A stretch of DNA of 64,000 nucleotides, taken from a virus. Its lineage: Duplodnaviria; Heunggongvirae; Uroviricota; Caudoviricetes. Both the position numbers and the translations under genes were made by a program. The stretch covers positions 20,373-84,372 of the IMG/VR virus record IMGVR_UViG_3300031957_002393; one strand, given 5' to 3'. This document shows positions 5,241 to 49,042 of the stretch, in pieces (the first letter of the stretch is position 1; the number at the start of each line of letters is the position of its first letter). The notes beneath the pieces were generated by a model. It ran no database searches, was not told the DNA's origin, and saw only the letters and a program-made list of their open reading frames with translations.

Positions 5241-6983
5241 ATGACCGTCACAGCCCCCAACGTAGAGATCAACTTGCCGCTGGGCATGAAGTTGTTTCGG
5301 CCCCCGGGAGCCCACGAACGCTATGACGACATGATGGCACAGTTCTTCGCTACGCCTTATGCGTTTTGTTATGTGTGCCCCATCGTCACAATCAACGATG
5401 TCGTTGAGATGATGCAACCCACGGATAATCAGAAACTGGTGGCAACGAAGGCGCAAGACAGTAGGTTTATTTGGGTTAACAAGTATCGTCAGGCGTTCAT
5501 CACTACACTCATGGACATGATGCTTTTGCGTGATTGTATGTACGGGGAAGGCATTCAGGGCGCGTTCGTTGCACAGAAAGAAGACACCCACAAAGAGCAC
5601 ATGCGGCGCATTTCCTTCACGTACAACAAGATGAAAGAGGATCCCATCCTATCAAAGTTCATCGTGCCGTTGAAGAAGAATACAAGCGCAACGATTTCAG
5701 GTATTGAGTTCATTCACGGTGGTGGTATTTGGCCTATCACTGCGGGCTCTGACAGCCCGGGTGTCGGTCGCTCCTTCTCTCGTGTTGTGGAGACAGAGAG
5801 TTGCGAGATGCCCGCCGAAGACTTCCATAGGCTGAACACAAAGTTCTACCCTACGATCACCAAGCGACCCTTCGGTCGTATTTGGCGAGAGAGCACTCCG
5901 GGTAAAGCAGAAACACCCCAACACCGTGCTTGGCTAAAGGCACTCAAGGGTAACAGTCGATTTGAGCCTGTGTTTTTGAAGTGGTGGGAAGATAGCGTCA
6001 ACACGGTACCCTTGAGTGACAAGTTCTCGCCAATCACAGAAGAAGAGAAGGAATACGCTCGACGCCTTAAAGGCATCACAAAGGGGCACGTTTACTTTCG
6101 CCGCTTTGAGATTAGCGACTTCTGTGACGGTGACGAGAATCTGTTTGAGGTCAAGTACCCGAGCGGCCCTCTCAAGGGTTGGACACGCAGCACAGGCACA
6201 GTGTTCGATCAACACCGTCTACAGAAAATGTACGACACGTCAATCAGCGATGACACGGGACGAAACATCAATCATTACTGCCTCGTTGCCAAGAAGCCCA
6301 ACCCTTATCATCGTTACGTTCTGGTAATCGACCCGACGGACTTCGGGGCCACGGGCGATAATGCGGCTATGATCATGTTTGACCGCTGTGACTGGGAAGA
6401 GGTAGCTAAGTGGGAAGGACGGGAAGACCCTACGAAAAGCTACCCCCGTGCAAAGGAAATGTGCAAATACTACAACAACGCCACAATGGTCATCGAGAGC
6501 AACTGCTCTGCCTTCATTGCCTTAGCTACAAGGGATGACGAACCTGACGCTCCACCAATCTACTACGAAAAGAAAGACAAGCCCGGTTGGCGAGCTACAT
6601 CAAAGTCTATTCAGGAAGGTGAGGCCGCGGTTAATGAGCTACTCAAGGAAGAGGTGTTCACATTGAACTTCGCCTCTACCATTGAGCAGATGCTACACTT
6701 CGATGGTAACAAGCGTGACCGACGAGTACGCAATACCCGTGGCGAAAAAAGTCACTTCGATTCGGCGCGCTGCGCTGTCATCGCCGCTCACTGGCTGTAC
6801 AATGGGGGCTACTGCGCCCCCATCTCGGAGGAAGAGCTGCGGAAGCTACGCGAGGCACAAGCCGAGAGAGACGAGGCTATCGCCCGTGAGCGATTCATCG
6901 CTGCGCTCAAGCGCAACGGACGTTACGAGGATCCCAACGCCGACAGCGTGTGGGCACCTGGGGCAGCTCGGAGGATGATGTGA
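5241..6983 (+). CDS. terL: terminase large subunit (putative)
   Basis: 580 aa. C-terminal region has nuclease-like motifs YVLVIDPTDFGATGDNAAMIMFD and MVIESNCSAF (terminase RNaseH-like D...D...E-x-N pattern); directly precedes portal-sized gene. No canonical Walker A seen, start codon uncertain. Confidence 0.5.
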   Translation: MTVTAPNVEINLPLGMKLFRPPGAHERYDDMMAQFFATPYAFCYVCPIVTINDVVEMMQPTDNQKLVATKAQDSRFIWVNKYRQAFITTLMDMMLLRDCMYGEGIQGAFVAQKEDTHKEHMRRISFTYNKMKEDPILSKFIVPLKKNTSATISGIEFIHGGGIWPITAGSDSPGVGRSFSRVVETESCEMPAEDFHRLNTKFYPTITKRPFGRIWRESTPGKAETPQHRAWLKALKGNSRFEPVFLKWWEDSVNTVPLSDKFSPITEEEKEYARRLKGITKGHVYFRRFEISDFCDGDENLFEVKYPSGPLKGWTRSTGTVFDQHRLQKMYDTSISDDTGRNINHYCLVAKKPNPYHRYVLVIDPTDFGATGDNAAMIMFDRCDWEEVAKWEGREDPTKSYPRAKEMCKYYNNATMVIESNCSAFIALATRDDEPDAPPIYYEKKDKPGWRATSKSIQEGEAAVNELLKEEVFTLNFASTIEQMLHFDGNKRDRRVRNTRGEKSHFDSARCAVIAAHWLYNGGYCAPISEEELRKLREAQAERDEAIARERFIAALKRNGRYEDPNADSVWAPGAARRMM

Positions 6984-38354: not shown

Positions 38355-38425
38355 TGGCGCATCGTCTAACGGCAAGGCCCTGGTTTTTGGCACCAGTGAT
38401 GAGGGTTCGAGTCCTTCTGCGCCAG
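38355..38425 (+). tRNA. tRNA-Gln(UUG)
   Basis: Hand-folded: acceptor TGGCGCA/TGCGCCA (U1-A72 as in bacterial tRNA-Gln), AC stem CTGGT/ACCAG, loop TTTTGGC, T-arm GAGGG-TTCGAGT-CCTTC. Confidence 0.65.
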
Positions 38426-38473
38426 CTCTTGTGGGTTCAGTCAACGCTTGCTACGGGAAGGCAGGTACCTTAT

Positions 38474-38542
38474 GGGGTGATAGCTTAATGGAGAGCGGCA
38501 GGCGGCCACCTGCAGGTGAGGGTTCAAGTCCCTCAAACCCCT
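38474..38542 (+). tRNA. degenerate tRNA-like element (possible tRNA pseudogene; anticodon unclear)
   Basis: Good T-arm GAGGG-TTCAAGT-CCCTC and D-loop TAGCTTAATGG but acceptor has 2 mismatches and anticodon loop is 6 nt (GCAGG-CGGCCA-CCTGC). Confidence 0.3.
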
Positions 38543-38546
38543 TCGT

Positions 38547-38620
38547 GATTCTGTAGCTCAGTTGGTTAGAGCGGCTGATTGTTAATCAGCGGGTCGGAGG
38601 TTCGAGTCCTCCCAGAATCG
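38547..38620 (+). tRNA. tRNA-Asn(GUU)
   Basis: Acceptor GATTCTG/CAGAATC, D-loop TAGCTCAGTTGGTTAGAGC, AC stem GCTGA/TCAGC loop TTGTTAA, T-arm GGAGG-TTCGAGT-CCTCC. Confidence 0.8.
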
Positions 38621-38625
38621 CTTTT

Positions 38626-38698
38626 GGTTGTCAAGCTCAGTTGGCGGAGCGCTGGTCTGAAGCACCAGAGGTGCGGGGTTCGATTCCCCGGGCAACCA
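38626..38698 (+). tRNA. tRNA-Phe(GAA)
   Basis: Acceptor GGTTGTC/GGCAACC (one G-U), AC stem CTGGT/ACCAG loop CTGAAGC, T-arm CGGGG-TTCGATT-CCCCG. Confidence 0.75.
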
Positions 38699-38722
38699 TT
38701 TTCTTTTAGGGAGCAATGAAAC

Positions 38723-39097
38723 ATGTACAAGCAGGTACTCATCTATCGACGTGACCTCAAGATGCGGAAGGGTAAGATTGCGGCGCAGTGTGCTCATGCC
38801 GCAGTGAGGTTGTGTGTCCAGTGTTTCACGTCGTCATTCACTGGCATCGATCGGTTGAGGGAATGGTACCATAGCGGCCAGAAGAAGATCGTGCTCAGCG
38901 TCGACACCCTTGAGGAGCTGTACGAGTTGCAGGCCCAGGCGGCTGTTGCAGGGCTACGCAACGCCATCGTGACTGATACAGGTGCGACGGAGTTTCACGG
39001 GGTAGCTACGGTCACTGTACTCGGCATCGGTCCCTGTACAGATGAAGAAGTCGATCCGATCACTCGCAATGGTGATGTTGCAACAAAGCTCGCATGA
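38723..39097 (+). CDS. pth2: peptidyl-tRNA hydrolase, PTH2 family
   Basis: KQVLIYRRDLKMRKGKIAAQCAHAAV matches PTH2 signature (human PTRH2 ...[21 protein letters not shown]...); SD GGGAG; sits between tRNA genes. Confidence 0.75.
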   Translation: MYKQVLIYRRDLKMRKGKIAAQCAHAAVRLCVQCFTSSFTGIDRLREWYHSGQKKIVLSVDTLEELYELQAQAAVAGLRNAIVTDTGATEFHGVATVTVLGIGPCTDEEVDPITRNGDVATKLA

Positions 39098-39117
39098 GGT
39101 TATGATTACATTAACAC

Positions 39118-39190
39118 GGGCCCCTAACTCAATCGGTAGAATACCGTCTTTTTAAGTCGGGGGTTGTGGGTTCGAGTCCCACGGGGCCCA
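39118..39190 (+). tRNA. tRNA-Lys(UUU)
   Basis: Acceptor GGGCCCC/GGGGCCC, AC stem CCGTC/GTCGG (one mismatch) loop TTTTTAA, T-arm GTGGG-TTCGAGT-CCCAC. Confidence 0.6.
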
Positions 39191-39219
39191 TTACTCACAT
39201 AAACCAAAGGATCCATACA

Positions 39220-39855
39220 ATGCAAGGCACTACCATTCACCGCAACCTCCACCGCTGCCACCACCCTAACCTCAGCAGTATTCATGTTGCCCCTGGTGTA
39301 CGAGCGTTTATCGCATCTGGTGATGGGGTTTCGCTGTTCCATCCATCAGGCGCATTCAGTGTTGCGGCCCATGGGCATCGCACGGACATCGATCTGATTG
39401 TGTTGCAAGGTAGCTTGATCAACTGGCTTATGTGGCCAGGTATGTGTGTCGAAGCCAAACCTCATCACTTGGGGTTGTATGAGTTTGATTACGTGTCGGG
39501 CTTGATGTCTGGTGATGCCCCCGAGTTTAAGCCTACGGGATCTGTGCTTCATAGCTCTGCACCTAAAGCCTACTGGCTGCGCCTAGGCATGGGTATGCCG
39601 CTCGGGGCCGATGAGGTGCACACGGTTAGTTGTACGTCCGATGCTATCTGGTTGGTAGTTGAGCGACAGGAGCGACCAGTGCCACGAAAGGTGTACAGCC
39701 CAGTGAACACTGTTGCATCTTACAAGGATCTATATCAGACAATGTCTGATGAAGAGGCACGCGCTTATCTTAGGATCGTGCGAGGTCTTTGCGGCAAGCT
39801 GCGTAAAAAAGATTACACTCTCAACGACATTGACCTTCGCACGGAGCACGCATGA
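39220..39855 (+). CDS. hypothetical protein (211 aa)
   Basis: ATG 39220 with SD AAAGGA 9 nt upstream. Confidence 0.4.
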   Translation: MQGTTIHRNLHRCHHPNLSSIHVAPGVRAFIASGDGVSLFHPSGAFSVAAHGHRTDIDLIVLQGSLINWLMWPGMCVEAKPHHLGLYEFDYVSGLMSGDAPEFKPTGSVLHSSAPKAYWLRLGMGMPLGADEVHTVSCTSDAIWLVVERQERPVPRKVYSPVNTVASYKDLYQTMSDEEARAYLRIVRGLCGKLRKKDYTLNDIDLRTEHA

Positions 39856-40505
39856 ACAAGATCACTCCCCCCTACCCTACGCTACCCGAGTGGGTTGAAG
39901 CGAACAAGCCGAAGGATGAAATGCTGTGGAAGGGGGCATTTGAGCAAAGTGTTCTACGAATGATCGCGCTTACATCTTGGTGTGAAGCCGTTAAGGCACC
40001 TGCTCTGGTTGTCAGCACGCATACGTCCAAGTCGATCACGTTGCCCGTCATTCGATTCCAAACGGATCACGCTGCGTGGTGGATGCGTGATAACTTACAC
40101 GATGTAGAGCTTGCGTTCATGGCTGATCGCCCGATCAACGTTGACCTATCGGGCATCTTTCACTACATGAGTGCCGTCGATTATACGGCGGCGTTGAAGC
40201 GTGCTCGCGGTTGGCATGAGCGCCACGCCAAAGACAGCGAGTCGCTGCGCGATGTCAAACAGGGGTGGCTGCTCAAGTACCCCGACAACCTGGGCTGGTA
40301 CGAGCAGTACGGGGGCGGCAAGCTGGTGCGAGTTGGTGAGGCGGGGAGCCCGGAGGCTGTCTACTATATCCTTAGTAGGTGTTACAGACAGGGCATGGAG
40401 TATCTTGGCCTGCGGGACTGGTGCCCGGGCATGGCGGGAGGTACGATCTCTGTTGACGCCGATCGCGCCATGAAGTTTGTTGCAGCCTTCGAGTCGACCT
40501 GTTAA
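39852..40505 (+). CDS. hypothetical protein (217 aa)
   Basis: ATGA overlap with upstream gene. Confidence 0.4.
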   Translation: MNKITPPYPTLPEWVEANKPKDEMLWKGAFEQSVLRMIALTSWCEAVKAPALVVSTHTSKSITLPVIRFQTDHAAWWMRDNLHDVELAFMADRPINVDLSGIFHYMSAVDYTAALKRARGWHERHAKDSESLRDVKQGWLLKYPDNLGWYEQYGGGKLVRVGEAGSPEAVYYILSRCYRQGMEYLGLRDWCPGMAGGTISVDADRAMKFVAAFESTC

Positions 40506-40551
40506 ACTACTTTCAGGCCCCGATGGCGGAATAGGTAGACGTACGGGCCTT

Positions 40552-41240
40552 TGAGGAGCAATATGACATTGTACGCCGGCTATCGACTTAACGGGCCGTA
40601 TCTTCGACCTGATGGACGTAAGCACTTGGTAGTGGTTAAGCCCAACGGAAAGAAGACGACGCTATCTTACCCTAAGTATCTAATGGAGATGCACTTGGGC
40701 AGGTACTTGCTGCCTAATGAGTCGGTTGATCACATCAACAAGGACTTTACGGATGACAGGCTAGAGAATCTACAGGTTCTCACCCATTCCGAACACGCCC
40801 AACTTGATGCGAAAAGGCTGGTAGCTCAAACTTTTGAATGCCCTTGGTGTGAAAAGGAGTTTGAGCTTGTGGGCAAGAAGTTGTCTTACGCACTATCTAA
40901 CAGAAAGAGAGGCAAAGCTGGACCTTTCTGTGGTAGGAGCTGTGCGGGTAAATACGGCGCTTCCGTGCAAAACGGAGGTAAGCCTATTGCCTGTACCTTG
41001 ATTACTCCAGAGTACACTTGTCATAAGTTCACACAGAGCCTCAATCAAGAAACTGATTGAGTGGACGGCGCTAAGTCGGGGAAACCTTAACAGGTAACGC
41101 TGATGGCAATCCCGAGCTAACCCTAAAGGGTGAGTGTAGAGACTTTACACGCCGCACCTAAAGCTATTAGCTAAGGTGAAGAGAAAGTCCAGACTACAAA
41201 CAAACAGCTTGCGTTTGGCTACGAAAGTAGTAGTGGTAAG
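40552..41240 (+). mobile_element. group I-like intron (689 nt) in tRNA-Leu anticodon loop, carrying HNH homing endonuclease ORF
   Basis: Inserted after U34 (U at -1) and ends with G (41240), as for group I introns; 3' 180 nt contain GGGAAACC and AGACTA core-like strings; same insertion site as cyanobacterial/plastid trnL(UAA) intron. Confidence 0.55.
40563..41060 (+). CDS. HNH homing endonuclease (intron-encoded)
   Basis: ATG 40563 with SD GAGGAG; DHINKDFTDDRLENLQVLTHSEHAQ = HNH motif; C-terminal Cys cluster CPWC...CGRSC (zinc finger). Confidence 0.75.
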   Translation: MTLYAGYRLNGPYLRPDGRKHLVVVKPNGKKTTLSYPKYLMEMHLGRYLLPNESVDHINKDFTDDRLENLQVLTHSEHAQLDAKRLVAQTFECPWCEKEFELVGKKLSYALSNRKRGKAGPFCGRSCAGKYGASVQNGGKPIACTLITPEYTCHKFTQSLNQETD

Positions 41241-41336
41241 AAAAGCCTGTGGCCGATCGGTCGTGTGGGTTCGATTCCCACTCGGGGCACCATTCACACA
41301 AGGGCTGTTAAGCCCGCAACCCAAGGAGACATGCTA

Positions 41337-41984
41337 ATGCATGCGCTATTTCGTTTCGCTCTCCCTGCTGCCCTACTTGTGGCAGCTACAACCGCACCGA
41401 CAGCCGCTGAGGCAGCCACGCCAGAGCCGTGGGCATCCATGCCGATGGGCGATCAGATCAGTTGGCTCCTCCAGTACAACCTTGCGCTGGCGTCTGGCTC
41501 TTGGGCTCGCGTGTGGGCTATCGTCAACGCTTTCGCTGAAGAGATGGGCCTGTCCTACCTTGAAGCCAAGGCCGCGCTGGAAGCCGCTGCTCCAGACTTC
41601 TTCGTCAACGGCAACCTACCTCACCTCATGATCAACATCAACGTGCCTGATGCTGTGCTGAAGCCTGGATGGGATCATGCCCCTCCTGACCTAGCTCTGA
41701 ACATTGACTTTGGTGGCGGTGACGGTTATGAGGGCGGAGGCACGGACGTCTATCAGGTTGAGGTGGATTGCCCCGAGCTGGAGGAAAACGATCCGTCGGT
41801 TGAGTGTGATGACAGCGAGGTGTCTATGACCACCTTTGTTGAGCCTGTTGTCGATCTGGACGGCGCTGATTGGTGCGTCATCTCCACTGACCGCGCAGCC
41901 TACTTCATTGACGTTTCGTGTGATCAGGTTATCAACAGTAACGAGCCGGTGCCTGTCACTGGTATCATCTACCCCACGGAGTAA
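41337..41984 (+). CDS. secreted protein with cleavable signal peptide (216 aa)
   Basis: MHALFRFALPAALLVAATTAPTAAEAA signal; SD AAGGAG 8 nt upstream of ATG 41337 (ATG 41331 also possible). Confidence 0.5.
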   Translation: MHALFRFALPAALLVAATTAPTAAEAATPEPWASMPMGDQISWLLQYNLALASGSWARVWAIVNAFAEEMGLSYLEAKAALEAAAPDFFVNGNLPHLMININVPDAVLKPGWDHAPPDLALNIDFGGGDGYEGGGTDVYQVEVDCPELEENDPSVECDDSEVSMTTFVEPVVDLDGADWCVISTDRAAYFIDVSCDQVINSNEPVPVTGIIYPTE

Positions 41985-41987
41985 AGC

Positions 41988-42185
41988 ATGTGGAAGTTCG
42001 CTGAAAACAACCCTGTGCGTTTTGTTGTTATCATTACCATTATCGCTATCGTGGGTGTCGCTATTGCCTCTGTGATTCCGCAGACCGTTGCTGTGATCAC
42101 GGTTACTCCGTATGAGTCCGGTGGAGGCAAGCTACACATGACGGTCGGTGGAGATGAAGGTGTCGACGCCGACGACAACCGATAG
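41988..42185 (+). CDS. small membrane protein, paralog A (65 aa)
   Basis: N-terminal TM helix; C-terminal ESGGGKLHMTVGGDEGVDADDNR shared with next gene. Confidence 0.45.
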   Translation: MWKFAENNPVRFVVIITIIAIVGVAIASVIPQTVAVITVTPYESGGGKLHMTVGGDEGVDADDNR

Positions 42186-42245
42186 GATCGTGGTGGAGCT
42201 TGGCGCCTCTACTGTCAATGTCTCTATCAACAAGAGAGGTGAGTA

Positions 42246-42455
42246 ATGGAAAAGTTTATGCGCAATAGCCCTTTTGCTTTCGTTCTACTCGTGTTCATCG
42301 TTGCGTCTGTGGTTACCAGTGTTTTCGACATGGTAACTATGACGGCCATGGCCGCTATGGGCGTCAACTTTGAGCAGGGCGGAGGCAAGCTTCATGTCTC
42401 CCTGGGGGGTGACACCGATGCATCTACCGAAAGCGACGCCGACGACAACCGATAG
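42246..42455 (+). CDS. small membrane protein, paralog B (69 aa)
   Basis: Same architecture; C-terminal EQGGGKLHVSLGGD...DADDNR; DNA repeat GACGCCGACGACAACCGATAGGATC at both 3' ends. Confidence 0.45.
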   Translation: MEKFMRNSPFAFVLLVFIVASVVTSVFDMVTMTAMAAMGVNFEQGGGKLHVSLGGDTDASTESDADDNR

Positions 42456-42459
42456 GATC

Positions 42460-42570
42460 ATGTCTCTCATTGTAGTAGTATTTTTCTTTGCGATCCTGTT
42501 CGCTCTGGGTTACGCTGCTACAACGAAGACTGAACTGAGGAAGGTACAACAAGGAGCGCTGCTTGCCTAA
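42460..42570 (+). CDS. tiny single-TM peptide (36 aa)
   Basis: MSLIVVVFFFAILFALGYAA...; weak SD; low confidence. Confidence 0.25.
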   Translation: MSLIVVVFFFAILFALGYAATTKTELRKVQQGALLA

Positions 42571-42854
42571 GTTAGAAAGGAGCCTGTGTGTTGGGAAATG
42601 GCCGTGCTGTCACACGGCAATTCGTCATAGGGTGATGGCTCCTGCTGCGTAAGGGCTTACGTGCGTGCACGGGGACGTGCACGGTCGAAGGCGTGAGACC
42701 TTTGTTTGACGGCGGGTGACGAAAGACACCCGTGGAAACCCGTCAAGTACCGTGATTGCGGACGCAGTGACTACAGTTACGCTATAACGGATAGGCTTTG
42801 TGTGCACGTTGAGCCGAACGAGATCCTGCTTGAAGGATCGAACAATGTGCATTT

Positions 42855-42930
42855 GCCGGGTTAGCTCAGTTGGTAGGGCTGTGGTTTTGTAAACCACCGG
42901 TCGTGGGTTCGAGTCCCTCACCCGGCACCA
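42855..42930 (+). tRNA. tRNA-Thr(UGU), CCA encoded
   Basis: Acceptor GCCGGGT/ACCCGGC, D-loop TAGCTCAGTTGGTAGGGC, AC stem GTGGT/ACCAC loop TTTGTAA, T-arm GTGGG-TTCGAGT-CCCTC (one mismatch). Confidence 0.6.
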
Positions 42931-44410: not shown

Positions 44411-45223
44411 ATGCGCTACCTACTTCTACTCTCTTCTTTCGCTATGGGTTGCACCGTCATTGAGCCGGGTACCGTGGGAGTCGCTACGGACCTGGGTACT
44501 CTCCGAGAGGCTCCGCTCACTCCTGGCATTAACTTCTACCCGCCCATCTATCGCTCCATCAATGTCTACAGTACGCGGTATGAAGCCTTTGAGGTTGATG
44601 AGGCATCGGCAACCAAGGACAACCAGAAGGTCAACGTCAAGGTGACTATTAGCTGGGCACGTCAGGCTGACGCTGTGCCTATGCAGGAACGAGAGTATCC
44701 GAACCTTGAACAGATGGTGCTCAAGCCTCGACTCGTCGAGGCTATCAAGGCCGCAACGTCCATGTACAGCGCTGACGAGCTGACAGCTCAGCGCGAGATG
44801 GTTAAGGAGAGCATCACGCAGACCATCAGCACTGCCCTTGCGCCTGTCGGTATTGTCGTGGATGATGTCAGTGTGGGCAACTTCGACTTCTCTGAAGCCT
44901 ACGATCGCGCCATCGAAGAGAAGATCCGTGCTCGTGAGGAGTCGAAGCGGGCGGAGGAAGAGCTTCGCAAGGCTGAGGCTGAGGCAAAGAAGAAGATCGT
45001 CAAGGCTACTGCAGACAAGCAGGCGGCTATCCTTGTGGCAGAAGGTCAGGCGGAAGCGCTTCGCATTCAGGGTCAGGCCATCGAAGCCAATCCTGCAGTG
45101 GTTGAGCTTGAGCGCATCAACAAGTGGAACGGTGCGCCTGCTCGTGTTATCATGCTCGGAGAGGGTGGATCTGGTATGGCAGGAACCATGCTGCAGGTGT
45201 CTGCTGGTGCCAGCGCTGAGTAA
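44411..45223 (+). CDS. SPFH/band-7 (prohibitin/HflC-like) lipoprotein
   Basis: Lipobox LLLLSSFAMGC; SPFH core ...KDNQKVNVKVTISW...VKESITQTISTALAPVGIVVDDVSVGNFDFSEAYDRAIEEKIRAREESKRAEEE...VVELERINKWNG. Confidence 0.6.
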   Translation: MRYLLLLSSFAMGCTVIEPGTVGVATDLGTLREAPLTPGINFYPPIYRSINVYSTRYEAFEVDEASATKDNQKVNVKVTISWARQADAVPMQEREYPNLEQMVLKPRLVEAIKAATSMYSADELTAQREMVKESITQTISTALAPVGIVVDDVSVGNFDFSEAYDRAIEEKIRAREESKRAEEELRKAEAEAKKKIVKATADKQAAILVAEGQAEALRIQGQAIEANPAVVELERINKWNGAPARVIMLGEGGSGMAGTMLQVSAGASAE

Positions 45224-47495: not shown

Positions 47496-48110
47496 ATGTC
47501 CGACATTCAAAACCTTACCATCTCTTCCGAGGTTGATCTCTCTACGATCGCTACGGCCATGGAGCACCGCATTGAGCAACAGCTTGAAGCGGAGTACACC
47601 CGGATTAAGGAAGTGGCAGGTCAACACACGCGTGAATTCGAGAATGCAGAGGAAGCTCTGTGTGACACACTGCAAGAGCATATGCCTGACTACACGCGCG
47701 CACTTATTGCAATGGGTTATGATGTTGTAGTTGTTCCCACTCGACCCTGTGAACGTCACCCGCGCTATAGCTTCTACATTGAAGTCACGGCTAACCATTA
47801 CCTTCAAGAAAGTGATCGACGGACACAGGGCTTTGTTCGTACCAACGGGGGCATCTCTACTTGGTGGGATGTCAGTAGTGATCATCTTGAGGAATGGGGT
47901 CTATTGAGCGAATTTGTGTCGCTTAGGCGCCTGTTTGATCGCCATAAGCAGTCGGAGTCTGCGTTGACCAAGGCGTACGAGCGTTACAAGAACAAGCGTG
48001 AGATCGCACGCAAGGCAAAGAATGAGTTCCTTGCGAACCTTGTGGAACTTCATATGCCGAACGTGGCTCAGATCATGGGCACGTCGAAGGCTAAGGCCCT
48101 GGAGGGATAA
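47496..48110 (+). CDS. hypothetical protein (204 aa)
   Basis: ATG 47496 with SD GGAGAA 6 nt upstream. Confidence 0.4.
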   Translation: MSDIQNLTISSEVDLSTIATAMEHRIEQQLEAEYTRIKEVAGQHTREFENAEEALCDTLQEHMPDYTRALIAMGYDVVVVPTRPCERHPRYSFYIEVTANHYLQESDRRTQGFVRTNGGISTWWDVSSDHLEEWGLLSEFVSLRRLFDRHKQSESALTKAYERYKNKREIARKAKNEFLANLVELHMPNVAQIMGTSKAKALEG

Positions 48111-49042
48111 TGTTCGATCCAACCCTGTATGGTTACAACTCTGAACATTTCAATGTCACTGTGCGAGCGGATAGTATCGGACCCAATGGCGTTCGTCTGA
48201 CTACCCTGGAGTGTACATACCCAGACATCATCCACACTCATGTGCTAACGCACCGTGTCTTCTCCCGTAACACCTCCAGCAGTCGAGCAATCCCTACCCG
48301 AAAGCTACTCGGTCGACTCAAGAACCATGTGTTGCCGCTGGTATGGCGCCGTAATCAACGAGGTATGAGCGGAGGAGAAGCGTTTGACCACATGCAAGCA
48401 GGTCGACTAGACTTTATTGTAGATCAATTGGTTGAGGTAACTCGCTTGTCGGTGGGTGAATTGCGCGAACACAAGGTAGCGAAGGAGACAATCAACCGCT
48501 ACATTGAGCACTTCCTCACCCGCACGGTCGTCATCACTTCTACTGAGTGGCAGAACTTCATCAACCTGCGTACAGCGTCGAATGCGCAACCAGAGGTGCA
48601 ACTCTTGGCGACCTTGGTTCGTCAAACCCTTGACACGTCAACCCCTACTACACTGCACCCTCTCCAATGGCACATGCCCTTCATCGACGCTGAGGCAGCG
48701 CAACTGCCCGAGGCTGATCGGCTAAAGGTCTCTGTGGGCCGCTGCGCTCGGGTGAGTTACCTTACCCACGATGGAGAGAGGGATCCGATGAAGGACATTG
48801 CCTTGGCTGATCGACTCCTGGCTGACGGTCACATGTCGCCATTCGAGCATGTAGCTCAGTGTCTACCCCCGGATACATTCGGCATGAGGCTCGATGGTTT
48901 CACTGTTGACGCTTTGCTTGCGTGGAAGGTAGGGTTCACGGAAGCTGAGCTACTCACGTCTAAGCTCTGGTCCGGTAACCTACGTGGTTGGCGCCAGTAC
49001 AGGAAGACTATCCATGGTGAAAGTACCTTCACTCCCTCATGA
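48110..49042 (+). CDS. thyX: flavin-dependent thymidylate synthase ThyX-like
   Basis: LTHRVFSRNTSSSRA fits ThyX signature RHR-x7-S-x-R (HRVFSRNTSSSR vs HRMFSFNQQSQR); FINLRTASNAQPEVQ downstream motif. Confidence 0.55.
   Translation: MFDPTLYGYNSEHFNVTVRADSIGPNGVRLTTLECTYPDIIHTHVLTHRVFSRNTSSSRAIPTRKLLGRLKNHVLPLVWRRNQRGMSGGEAFDHMQAGRLDFIVDQLVEVTRLSVGELREHKVAKETINRYIEHFLTRTVVITSTEWQNFINLRTASNAQPEVQLLATLVRQTLDTSTPTTLHPLQWHMPFIDAEAAQLPEADRLKVSVGRCARVSYLTHDGERDPMKDIALADRLLADGHMSPFEHVAQCLPPDTFGMRLDGFTVDALLAWKVGFTEAELLTSKLWSGNLRGWRQYRKTIHGESTFTPS

Follow-up and report, generated by a model that had tools for sequence, protein, structure and literature searches.

The 64,000-nt stretch of phage DNA analysed here (the window) carries, at positions 38355-42930 and all on the + strand, a loose cluster of tRNA genes, a Pth2-family peptidyl-tRNA hydrolase gene and a tRNA-Leu(UAA) gene divided by a group I intron that holds a homing endonuclease of the HNH_3 family. 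The original prediction described a tRNA island with six apparently functional tRNAs, one degenerate tRNA-like element and an embedded Pth2. Five standard tRNAs, the tRNA-like element and Pth2 bear this description out, but the tRNA-Leu is not the plain, apparently functional gene it was taken for: neither default ARAGORN nor Rfam finds a contiguous tRNA-Leu gene in the region, and a 689-nt intron divides it. Nothing in the region is more informative than this intron with its endonuclease, which the original prediction missed. The parts of the split gene are listed below in window coordinates (P, paired element of the intron; ORF, open reading frame; model R1 is described in the next section).

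40517-40551, + strand: tRNA-Leu(UAA) exon 1 (ARAGORN with introns allowed; helix table)
40552-41240, + strand: group I intron, 689 nt, presumably IC3-like (Rfam Intron_gpI, 33.7 bits; model R1, 96.9 bits; covariation)
40563-41060, + strand: HNH_3 homing-endonuclease ORF, 165 aa (PF13392, E-value 7.2e-9, 35.6 bits against a cut-off of 24.8)
41034-41240, + strand: ribozyme core (helix table for P1-P4; P5-P9 read by hand)
41034-38, + strand: P1 3′ strand (guide sequence), pairing with 40549-53
41040-47/41054-61, + strand: P2
41066-70/41150-54, + strand: P3
41076-81/41110-15, + strand: P4
41085-86/41105-06, + strand: P5; 41091-93/41100-02: P5a
41116-18/41133-35 and 41121-24/41128-31, + strand: P6
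41139,41141-44/41186-90, + strand: P7
41155-58/41175-78 and 41162-65/41169-72, + strand: P8
41194-97/41233-36, + strand: P9.0; 41218-22/41227-31: P9
41241-41292, + strand: tRNA-Leu(UAA) exon 2 (ARAGORN with introns allowed; helix table; joined-exon fold)

The split tRNA-Leu(UAA) gene and its intron

With introns allowed, ARAGORN calls a tRNA-Leu(taa) from 40517 to 41292 with a 689-nt intron at position 36, and a relaxed Rfam search returns an Intron_gpI match at 41020-41207 that adjoins a tRNA 3′ half. Exon 1 comprises the acceptor 5′ strand, the D arm and the anticodon stem 5′ strand, followed by C32, U33 and U34. Exon 2 resumes with A35, A36, A37 and A38 and continues through the anticodon stem 3′ strand, a long variable arm, the T arm and the acceptor 3′ strand to A73 and an encoded CCA. 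The insertion site thus lies between anticodon nucleotides 34 and 35, and once joined, the exons make a type II tRNA-Leu(UAA) cloverleaf of 87 nt in canonical form, encoded CCA end included. Split as it is, the gene gives no match to the Rfam tRNA model, and the tRNA-Leu can function only after the group I intron has been removed.

Both intron boundaries carry the nucleotides that mark group I splice sites. The last exon nucleotide (U-1) is U 40551, which pairs with G 41036 as a U-G wobble within the P1 helix CUUUG/CAGAG, and the terminal intron nucleotide (omega-G) is G 41240, directly 5′ of exon 2. In the window, every position of the tabulated helices P1-P4 and of the four tRNA stems is paired; P5-P9, assigned by manual inspection, match the consensus of the family. 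An unconstrained minimum-energy fold of the core places hairpins at the positions of P2, P4-P5a, P6, P8, P9.0 and P9. GAAA loops cap P2 and P9, and P7 keeps its bulged A. We take the intron to be IC3-like, from its resemblance to the core motifs of Azoarcus and Anabaena and from the shared insertion site; the window core reads GUGUAGAGACU, where the Anabaena core has C at the fourth position.

Comparison with viral relatives supports this structure. A covariance model built from 19 viral introns with the window left out (R1) finds a single match in the 64-kb window, at 41061-41198 (96.9 bits, E-value 9.5e-20), a score as high as those of members that lack an ORF. We then aligned 23 sequences, namely the window intron with its ORF removed and 22 ORF-less viral tRNA-Leu introns. 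Their RNAalifold consensus recovers all tRNA stems together with P1-P6, P8, P9.0 and P9, with compensatory changes in 49 pairs. Once P7 is added, 97.3% of the alignment cells are paired, against 34-39% in slid controls, and the covariation score is 0.607, against 0.07-0.11 in slid controls and reached by 0 of 500 shuffles. Covariation falls in P2, P3, P5, P6, P8 and P9, core helices among them, while P7 is present but invariant and hence uninformative in this respect. Every invariant column of the alignment is kept in the window.

Two further loci (L140 and L143) carry an HNH_3 gene, 52-56% identical to that of the window, at the same position in tRNA-Leu(UAA) introns of 685-690 nt. Among these three HNH_3-bearing introns, compensatory changes occur in P2 and P3, with the P3 versions CGGCG/CGCCG, CGTCG/CGACG and CACCG/CGGTG. 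As far as its sequence can tell, the window's tRNA-Leu(UAA) intron is structurally complete.

HNH_3 endonucleases and the wider intron family

The HNH_3 ORF begins 12 nt into the intron, preceded by a Shine-Dalgarno sequence (GAGGAG, 40554-40559); it fills the P1 loop and ends with a stop codon in the P2 3′ strand. Its closest relatives are 52-60% identical. Two of five close homologues, those of L140 and L143, are intron-borne, and the other three (L141, L142 and L144) stand free, each with an intact tRNA-Leu(UAA) gene as its direct neighbour. Relatives at greater distance, from IMG/VR and cultured phages, are likewise free-standing in tRNA arrays; that of Salmonella phage PVP-SE1 lies directly upstream of tRNA-Leu(UAA). 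An Rfam search of 11 loci with HNH homologues finds no group I intron at E-value ≤ 0.01; the copies at these loci are free-standing. A tRNA-Leu lies within 200 nt at 12 of 13 free-standing loci, and the tRNAs adjacent to such loci are Leu in 15 of 16 cases, against a background of 15% (binomial P 5e-12, for loci that are phylogenetically non-independent). In an intron or beside its target, and patchy among related genomes, the gene is located as a homing endonuclease would be.

The same clade is also found in decay. Locus L150 (IMG/VR 3300033143_004581, 2187-2764) is a tRNA-Leu(UAA) with a 490-nt intron in which only a 50-aa HNH_3 remnant persists, 50% identical to the window protein. Since HNH_3 relatives stand free beside tRNA-Leu, it is most likely that the gene first stood alone at its target and that an intron already present, without an ORF, later took it in; the intact copies and the L150 remnant would fit a cycle of invasion followed by decay.

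At two of the free-standing loci, pieces of tRNA-Leu flank the endonuclease gene: in L142 (1905-2521) a 3′ fragment starting at the anticodon loop (CTTAAAA...) lies downstream of HNH_3, and in L141 (1964-2000) a 5′ fragment lies upstream. To judge by their sequences, these fragments look like scars of endonuclease-driven rearrangement at the anticodon region.

Other long viral tRNA introns, mostly in tRNA-Leu, encode a second HNH family (IMG/VR loci L012, L018, L019, L025, L050, L072, L076, L080, L090 and L110), which has an N-terminal helix-turn-helix-like region and a C-terminal motif ELHHxNGxxxDNRxENLQLLCPNCH. We considered whether these ORFs and the window HNH_3 belong to one family and rejected this, since comparison with the window protein gives one weak match only. 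The presence of a second family in the same introns points to independent endonuclease invasions of one intron family. Separately, one contig with an HNH_3 relative (L007, IMG/VR 3300044712_002165) also carries a full-length transfer-messenger RNA at 5420-5840 (Rfam, 127 bits).

The intron family was traced in IMG/VR with a 27-nt core pattern, GTGTAGAGACTNNACN{8,9}CCTAA, which matches at least 120 loci. Among the matches listed, the core motif is enclosed in a split-tRNA call at 108 loci, of which 52 are tRNA-Leu(taa); introns of the latter either measure about 196-270 nt and lack an ORF or span 440-880 nt, the longer ones mostly with an ORF, and an ORF of 97-203 aa is present in about 18 of the 108 enclosed introns. 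The junctions CTT|...G|AAAA are common to 50 of 53 viral tRNA-Leu(taa) intron calls. The window core is nearest to the viral copies L150 and L156. The same motif occurs at at least 120 loci in bacterial genomes, mostly in tRNA-Leu(taa), Met(cat) and Arg(cct), in agreement with published surveys. At seven viral loci (L021, L023, L037, L048, L082, L094 and L126) the spliced 'tRNA-Leu(UAA)' would be only 73-75 nt long and without the long variable arm; such products are unusual for a bacterial-type tRNA-Leu, and they may be mis-assigned in isotype or may be atypical phage tRNAs.

Cultured and sequenced phages hold members of the family as well. In Agrobacterium phage Atu_ph07 (NC_042013), a jumbo phage of 490 kb that has been cultured, a tRNA-Leu(UAA) missing from the annotation contains a group I intron of 278 nt (L145, 2494-2855; about 112890-113251, minus strand; R1, 103 bits), with junctions GGACTT|ATGG...GGTATG|AAAA and with an annotated hypothetical coding sequence, gp154, overlapping exon 2. 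In Klebsiella phage Muenster (MT708547; L133, 1915-2225), a CAU-anticodon tRNA (Met or Ile2) within the tRNA array of RaK2-like jumbo phages contains a group I intron that the annotation lacks (Rfam, 104 bits at 1928-2176). Its exons, delimited by eye, read GGCCCCTTAGCTCA...CTCAT | ...AATCGTT...GGGGCCACCA, and similar matches occur in KP13-7, RCIP0023 and OU509535. In Microcoleus phage My-WqHQDG (OR578706; L132, 1410-1695), a feature annotated as 'tRNA-Arg' is 286 nt long and is called by ARAGORN as tRNA-Arg(CCU) with a 213-nt intron (R1 core score, 78 bits); a PD-(D/E)XK nuclease gene lies immediately upstream of it.

The window intron occupies the same gene and the same 34/35 site as the classical tRNA-Leu(UAA) intron of cyanobacteria and plastids. 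The junctions of the Nostoc intron, written CUU/a...g/AAAA in the tFind preprint (bioRxiv 10.1101/2020.01.27.920355), are the same as those of the window, and the 34/35 tRNA-Leu junctions listed in PMC13011429 likewise match its CUU|...G|AAAA. The two also share a compact core (about 200 nt), GAAA loops on P2 and P9 and an anticodon stem that pairs across the intron. They differ in that the window intron resides in a phage genome, holds a 165-aa HNH_3 ORF in its P1 loop, where the classical intron has no ORF, and has an extra P9 hairpin. Other bacterial tRNA introns (Azoarcus tRNA-Ile, Agrobacterium tRNA-Arg, and those of the tFind survey and a Patescibacteria study) share this architecture and likewise lie in the anticodon loop. 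Introns in bacterial tRNA genes are described as lacking endonucleases and hence as moving little, such genes being very rare in them, with one HNH case in a Bacteroidota tRNA-Leu(UAA) (PMC13011429).

Among phages, the introns of T4 td, nrdB and nrdD, of the SPO1 DNA polymerase gene, of Twort and of Bastillevirinae likewise combine a self-splicing intron with an HNH or GIY-YIG endonuclease in a conserved phage gene, but all of these are in protein-coding genes, whereas the window intron is in a tRNA gene. Up to 2014, the phage introns on record all lay in protein-coding genes, although phage tRNA genes are numerous (PMC3984707). Our full-text literature search, in which subscription journals were mostly outside and an earlier description may thus exist, found no later account of bacteriophage tRNA genes with group I introns. 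Free-standing endonucleases of phage tRNA arrays, such as SegB of T4 and T6 and the mycobacteriophage HNH genes, are similar in placing an endonuclease gene among phage tRNAs. SegB is a GIY-YIG enzyme without isotype preference, whereas the HNH_3 clade of the window is almost always found beside or inside tRNA-Leu.

Neighbouring tRNAs, Pth2 and the phage

The other genes of the region, in order, are the following.

38355-38426, + strand: tRNA-Gln(UUG) (ARAGORN; Rfam tRNA, 51.8 bits)
38474-38542, + strand: tRNA-like gene with a 6-nt anticodon loop (ARAGORN 'tRNA-???', anticodon (gc); Rfam, 43.8 bits)
38547-38621, + strand: tRNA-Asn(GUU) (ARAGORN; Rfam, 73.5 bits)
38625-38699, + strand: tRNA-Phe(GAA) (ARAGORN; Rfam, 56.3 bits)
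38723-39097, + strand: Pth2-family peptidyl-tRNA hydrolase, 124 aa (PF01981, E-value 1.5e-33, 115.9 bits against a cut-off of 23)
39118-39190, + strand: tRNA-Lys(UUU) (ARAGORN; Rfam, 58.3 bits)
39220-39855 and 39852-40505, + strand: two ORFs between tRNA-Lys and tRNA-Leu (no Pfam match; gene calls in the source record)
42855-42930, + strand: tRNA-Thr(UGU) (ARAGORN; Rfam, 64.7 bits)

tRNA genes were called with ARAGORN and with the Rfam tRNA covariance model (RF00005). The six Rfam matches in the region score 43.8-73.5 bits, all above the gathering score of 29, so the predicted tRNAs hold against the covariance-model threshold. In the five standard tRNAs and the spliced tRNA-Leu, the anticodon loop has 7 nt and the acceptor stem pairs throughout; the D stem and the anticodon stem of tRNA-Lys(UUU) each contain one mismatch, flagged by Rfam. 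The gene at 38474-38542 departs from this pattern and was rightly called degenerate: its loop, CGGCCA, has 6 nt, as the two-base ARAGORN anticodon implies, and its two innermost acceptor pairs are mismatched. Its RNA still folds into a cloverleaf (-28.6 kcal/mol). Comparison with 677 phage and bacterial tRNAs favours no isotype; decayed tRNA-Gly(GCC) and decayed tRNA-Ala(GGC) were both considered, and support was found for neither.

The original prediction gave the tRNAs of 38355-38698 a uniform spacing of 4-5 nt, as in a polycistronic precursor. Two of the three spacers come close (4 nt from the tRNA-like gene to tRNA-Asn, 3 nt from tRNA-Asn to tRNA-Phe), but tRNA-Gln and the tRNA-like gene are 47 nt apart. 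A common precursor is plausible given the single strand and the two spacers of 3-4 nt, although scans of the region for promoters and terminators return counts at or below shuffled expectation. The island is loose, with protein ORFs separating tRNA-Lys from tRNA-Leu and tRNA-Leu from tRNA-Thr. In the latter interval, the ORF just 3′ of exon 2 (41337-41984) has a signal-peptide-like N-terminus (MHALFRFALPAALLVAATTAPTAAEAA), an acidic C-terminal half and no Pfam match. Two adjacent small ORFs (41988-42185, 65 aa; 42246-42455, 69 aa) are paralogues, each with an N-terminal hydrophobic helix, and share the acidic C-terminus GGGKLH..GGD...DDNR.

Pth2 lies where it had been placed, between tRNA-Phe and tRNA-Lys, with the motif quoted for it present, and its homology is upheld by profile search, in which the PF01981 match covers positions 1-110 of the 115 in the profile. 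Matches to solved Pth2 structures, archaeal and human, have E-values of 1e-25 to 7e-15 and include PDB 1wn2 (1.3e-25), 1xty (1.6e-22) and human Bit1, 1q7s (5e-19). In the alignment with 1xty and 1wn2, the residues K18, D85 and T89 stand opposite the Lys, Asp and Thr that we take to be catalytic in the Sulfolobus solfataricus enzyme. The nearest homologue, 56% identical, is also within a phage-like tRNA array, and the next nearest are bacterial (Myxococcota and Oligoflexia, about 50% identity); a search of IMG/VR with peptide patterns confirmed no Pth2 relative. Pth2 in phage tRNA arrays has been published for cluster C mycobacteriophages and jumbo phages (PMC5966550, PMC7824862, PMC3622015), and rescue of peptidyl-tRNA after tRNA damage, or ribosome rescue, has been proposed as its role there (PMC5966550, PMC7824862). 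The window shows the same placement of Pth2 among tRNAs, in a phage of only 92.5 kb that has no DNA-level relative in the phage collection and whose closest Pth2 is 56% identical. A functional tie between Pth2 and the tRNAs is reasonable from the sequences, but it is already known.

The source record is a 92,564-bp metagenome contig of the Joint Genome Institute. Portal, thymidylate synthase and helicase families matched in PHROGs identify the window as phage DNA. Against 50,697 phage records, megablast of the window gives zero matches and blastn only tRNA-sized ones, so the phage has no close cultured relative. An SPFH/Band 7 protein (PF01145, E-value 1.5e-28) and a ThyX-type thymidylate synthase are encoded at 44411-45223 and 48110-49042. 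Nearly all other large ORFs of the window lack a Pfam or PHROGs match, which points to a very divergent phage lineage.

Readings of the region

We consider it probable that positions 38355-42930 form a translation-support module of a novel tailed phage, with a split tRNA-Leu, an HNH-bearing group I intron and Pth2, a judgement that covers all parts of this account jointly. The parts of the module are probably transcribed together with adjoining genes and released by RNase P and 3′ processing enzymes of the host; the module would supply tRNA-Gln(UUG), Asn(GUU), Phe(GAA), Lys(UUU), Thr(UGU) and Leu(UAA) together with the tRNA-like RNA. Pth2, judged by its family and conserved residues, would free tRNA from peptidyl-tRNA, and probably from N-acylated aminoacyl-tRNA too, and so recycle it during infection. 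For splicing, the exon end CUU and the intron UG would pair with the guide CAGAG, leaving the U-G wobble at the splice site; a free guanosine would attack 3′ of U34; and omega-G 41240 would then take the P7 site, the exons being ligated to give the 87-nt tRNA-Leu(UAA). By analogy with other intron-borne endonucleases, the HNH_3 enzyme may cut or nick the intron-less tRNA-Leu of co-infecting relatives near the anticodon-coding DNA, whereupon repair would copy the intron in (homing). The gene itself may have stood free at its target, been captured by a pre-existing ORF-less intron and entered a cycle of decay.

What the tRNAs and Pth2 are for admits two further readings. The first is plain support of codon usage and translation capacity, in which the tRNAs would offset codons poorly decoded by a host of higher G+C content and Pth2 would handle extra drop-off in late translation. 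All six anticodons read A/U-rich codon boxes, the phage has about 54% G+C, and the nearest cellular Pth2 relatives come from Myxococcota and Oligoflexia, groups in which many genomes are high in G+C. A ribosome-rescue rationale for tRNA arrays has also been put forward (PMC5966550). The suggestion that the tRNAs support the phage's own codon usage is, however, not evident in codon counts from a crude gene set of the window, taken for the phage alone. Of the Leu codons, UUA is used least (5% of Leu and only 0.4% of all codons), and AAA is the minor Lys codon (25% of Lys), so that codon demand by itself seems a weak reason for Leu(UAA) and Lys(UUU), a point that also tells against our own account. 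Of the earlier interpretation, then, the tRNAs and the Pth2 homology stand, and the codon-usage part is weak or unsupported. We regard plain codon support as possible, with rather low confidence.

The same low counts of UUA and AAA favour the second reading, which the original prediction preferred, namely an anti-defence module in which the tRNAs would replace host tRNAs cut by anticodon nucleases and Pth2 would clear peptidyl-tRNA or toxin-acetylated aminoacyl-tRNA arising from abortive infection. Such roles have been proposed for phage tRNAs (PMC10264068) and for Pth2 in jumbo phages (PMC7824862). Two further papers report neutralisation of the PARIS defence system by a phage tRNA (PMC11464382) and a detoxifying enzyme against a tRNA-acetylating toxin (PMC9241777). 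Against this, Pfam and PHROGs searches of about 30 larger window ORFs find no RNA ligase, kinase or nucleotidyltransferase indicative of tRNA repair, and ordinary tRNA supply is compatible with the anti-defence reading too. We hold it to be somewhat unlikely.

Several observations weigh against the account of a working split gene. The Rfam Intron_gpI score of 33.7 bits (E-value 8e-6) is under the gathering score of 50; none of the seeds of that family is bacterial, and the tFind preprint uses far lower cut-offs of 18-20 bits (bioRxiv 10.1101/2020.01.27.920355). The relatives used for R1 and for covariation were found by the 27-nt core motif that the window shares, so the model test is not fully independent. 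ARAGORN in intron mode also yields false calls by fusing neighbouring tRNAs (L136-L138, L133), and its calls were therefore accepted only where they enclose a ribozyme core. P1 has only 5 bp, its strands are 480 nt apart because the ORF intervenes, and a P10 pairing was looked for in the window intron and not found. Finally, the ORF runs through the guide sequence into P2, so its translation could interfere with folding.

The low Rfam score, the short P1 with its distant strands and the ORF overlapping the P1 3′ strand and P2 would also fit a dead tRNA-Leu, in which an endonuclease-bearing element disrupted the gene, splicing was lost and only five tRNAs are supplied; the broken tRNA-Leu fragments beside HNH_3 at L141 and L142 lend themselves to the same reading. 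The window intron nevertheless retains all family-invariant core positions, all its helices pair, and it shows compensatory changes relative to L140 and L143 and an R1 score level with ORF-less members. The intact exons together yield a perfect cloverleaf that includes CCA, and the HNH_3 ORF is full length, unlike the decaying copy of L150. Loss of the tRNA-Leu is accordingly improbable in our estimation.

Equally improbable is that the intron and endonuclease are kept for the benefit of the phage rather than being merely selfish, through tRNA gene amplification or exchange or through delayed tRNA-Leu maturation: the GIY-YIG enzyme SegB amplifies tRNA genes to escape Septu and is enriched beside phage tRNAs (PMC13096335), and tRNA-Leu fragments and duplicates flank HNH_3 relatives, but no tRNA amplification is seen in the window, and ORF-less, ORF-bearing and decayed-ORF introns coexist, as is usual where homing runs as a selfish cycle.

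On the preferred account of a translation-support module with a split tRNA-Leu, the tRNAs and Pth2 add one more, very divergent, case of a known phage strategy for sustaining translation. The main content, as read from the sequences, is a phage tRNA-Leu(UAA) with an apparently intact, endonuclease-bearing group I intron, from a large viral intron family overlooked by annotation. The tRNA-Leu(UAA) intron is the textbook old intron of bacteria and plastids, and its endonuclease-bearing phage copies would offer a route for horizontal spread. A single HNH_3 clade, seen beside tRNA-Leu, inside the intron and as a remnant, provides apparent snapshots of the assembly and decay of a mobile intron. Phage tRNA sets are also under-counted in so far as split genes escape tRNA finders run at default settings and Rfam, and phages in RefSeq and GenBank (Atu_ph07, Muenster) carry unannotated intron-containing tRNAs too. 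We suggest tentatively, at a little short of even confidence, that phages are a large overlooked reservoir and transfer vehicle for these 'ancient' tRNA-Leu(UAA)-type introns, which would be mobile in tRNA arrays and would repeatedly gain and lose at least two unrelated HNH families. If so, such a reservoir could explain the sporadic spread of the intron among bacteria, and phage tRNA repertoires would be systematically under-counted.

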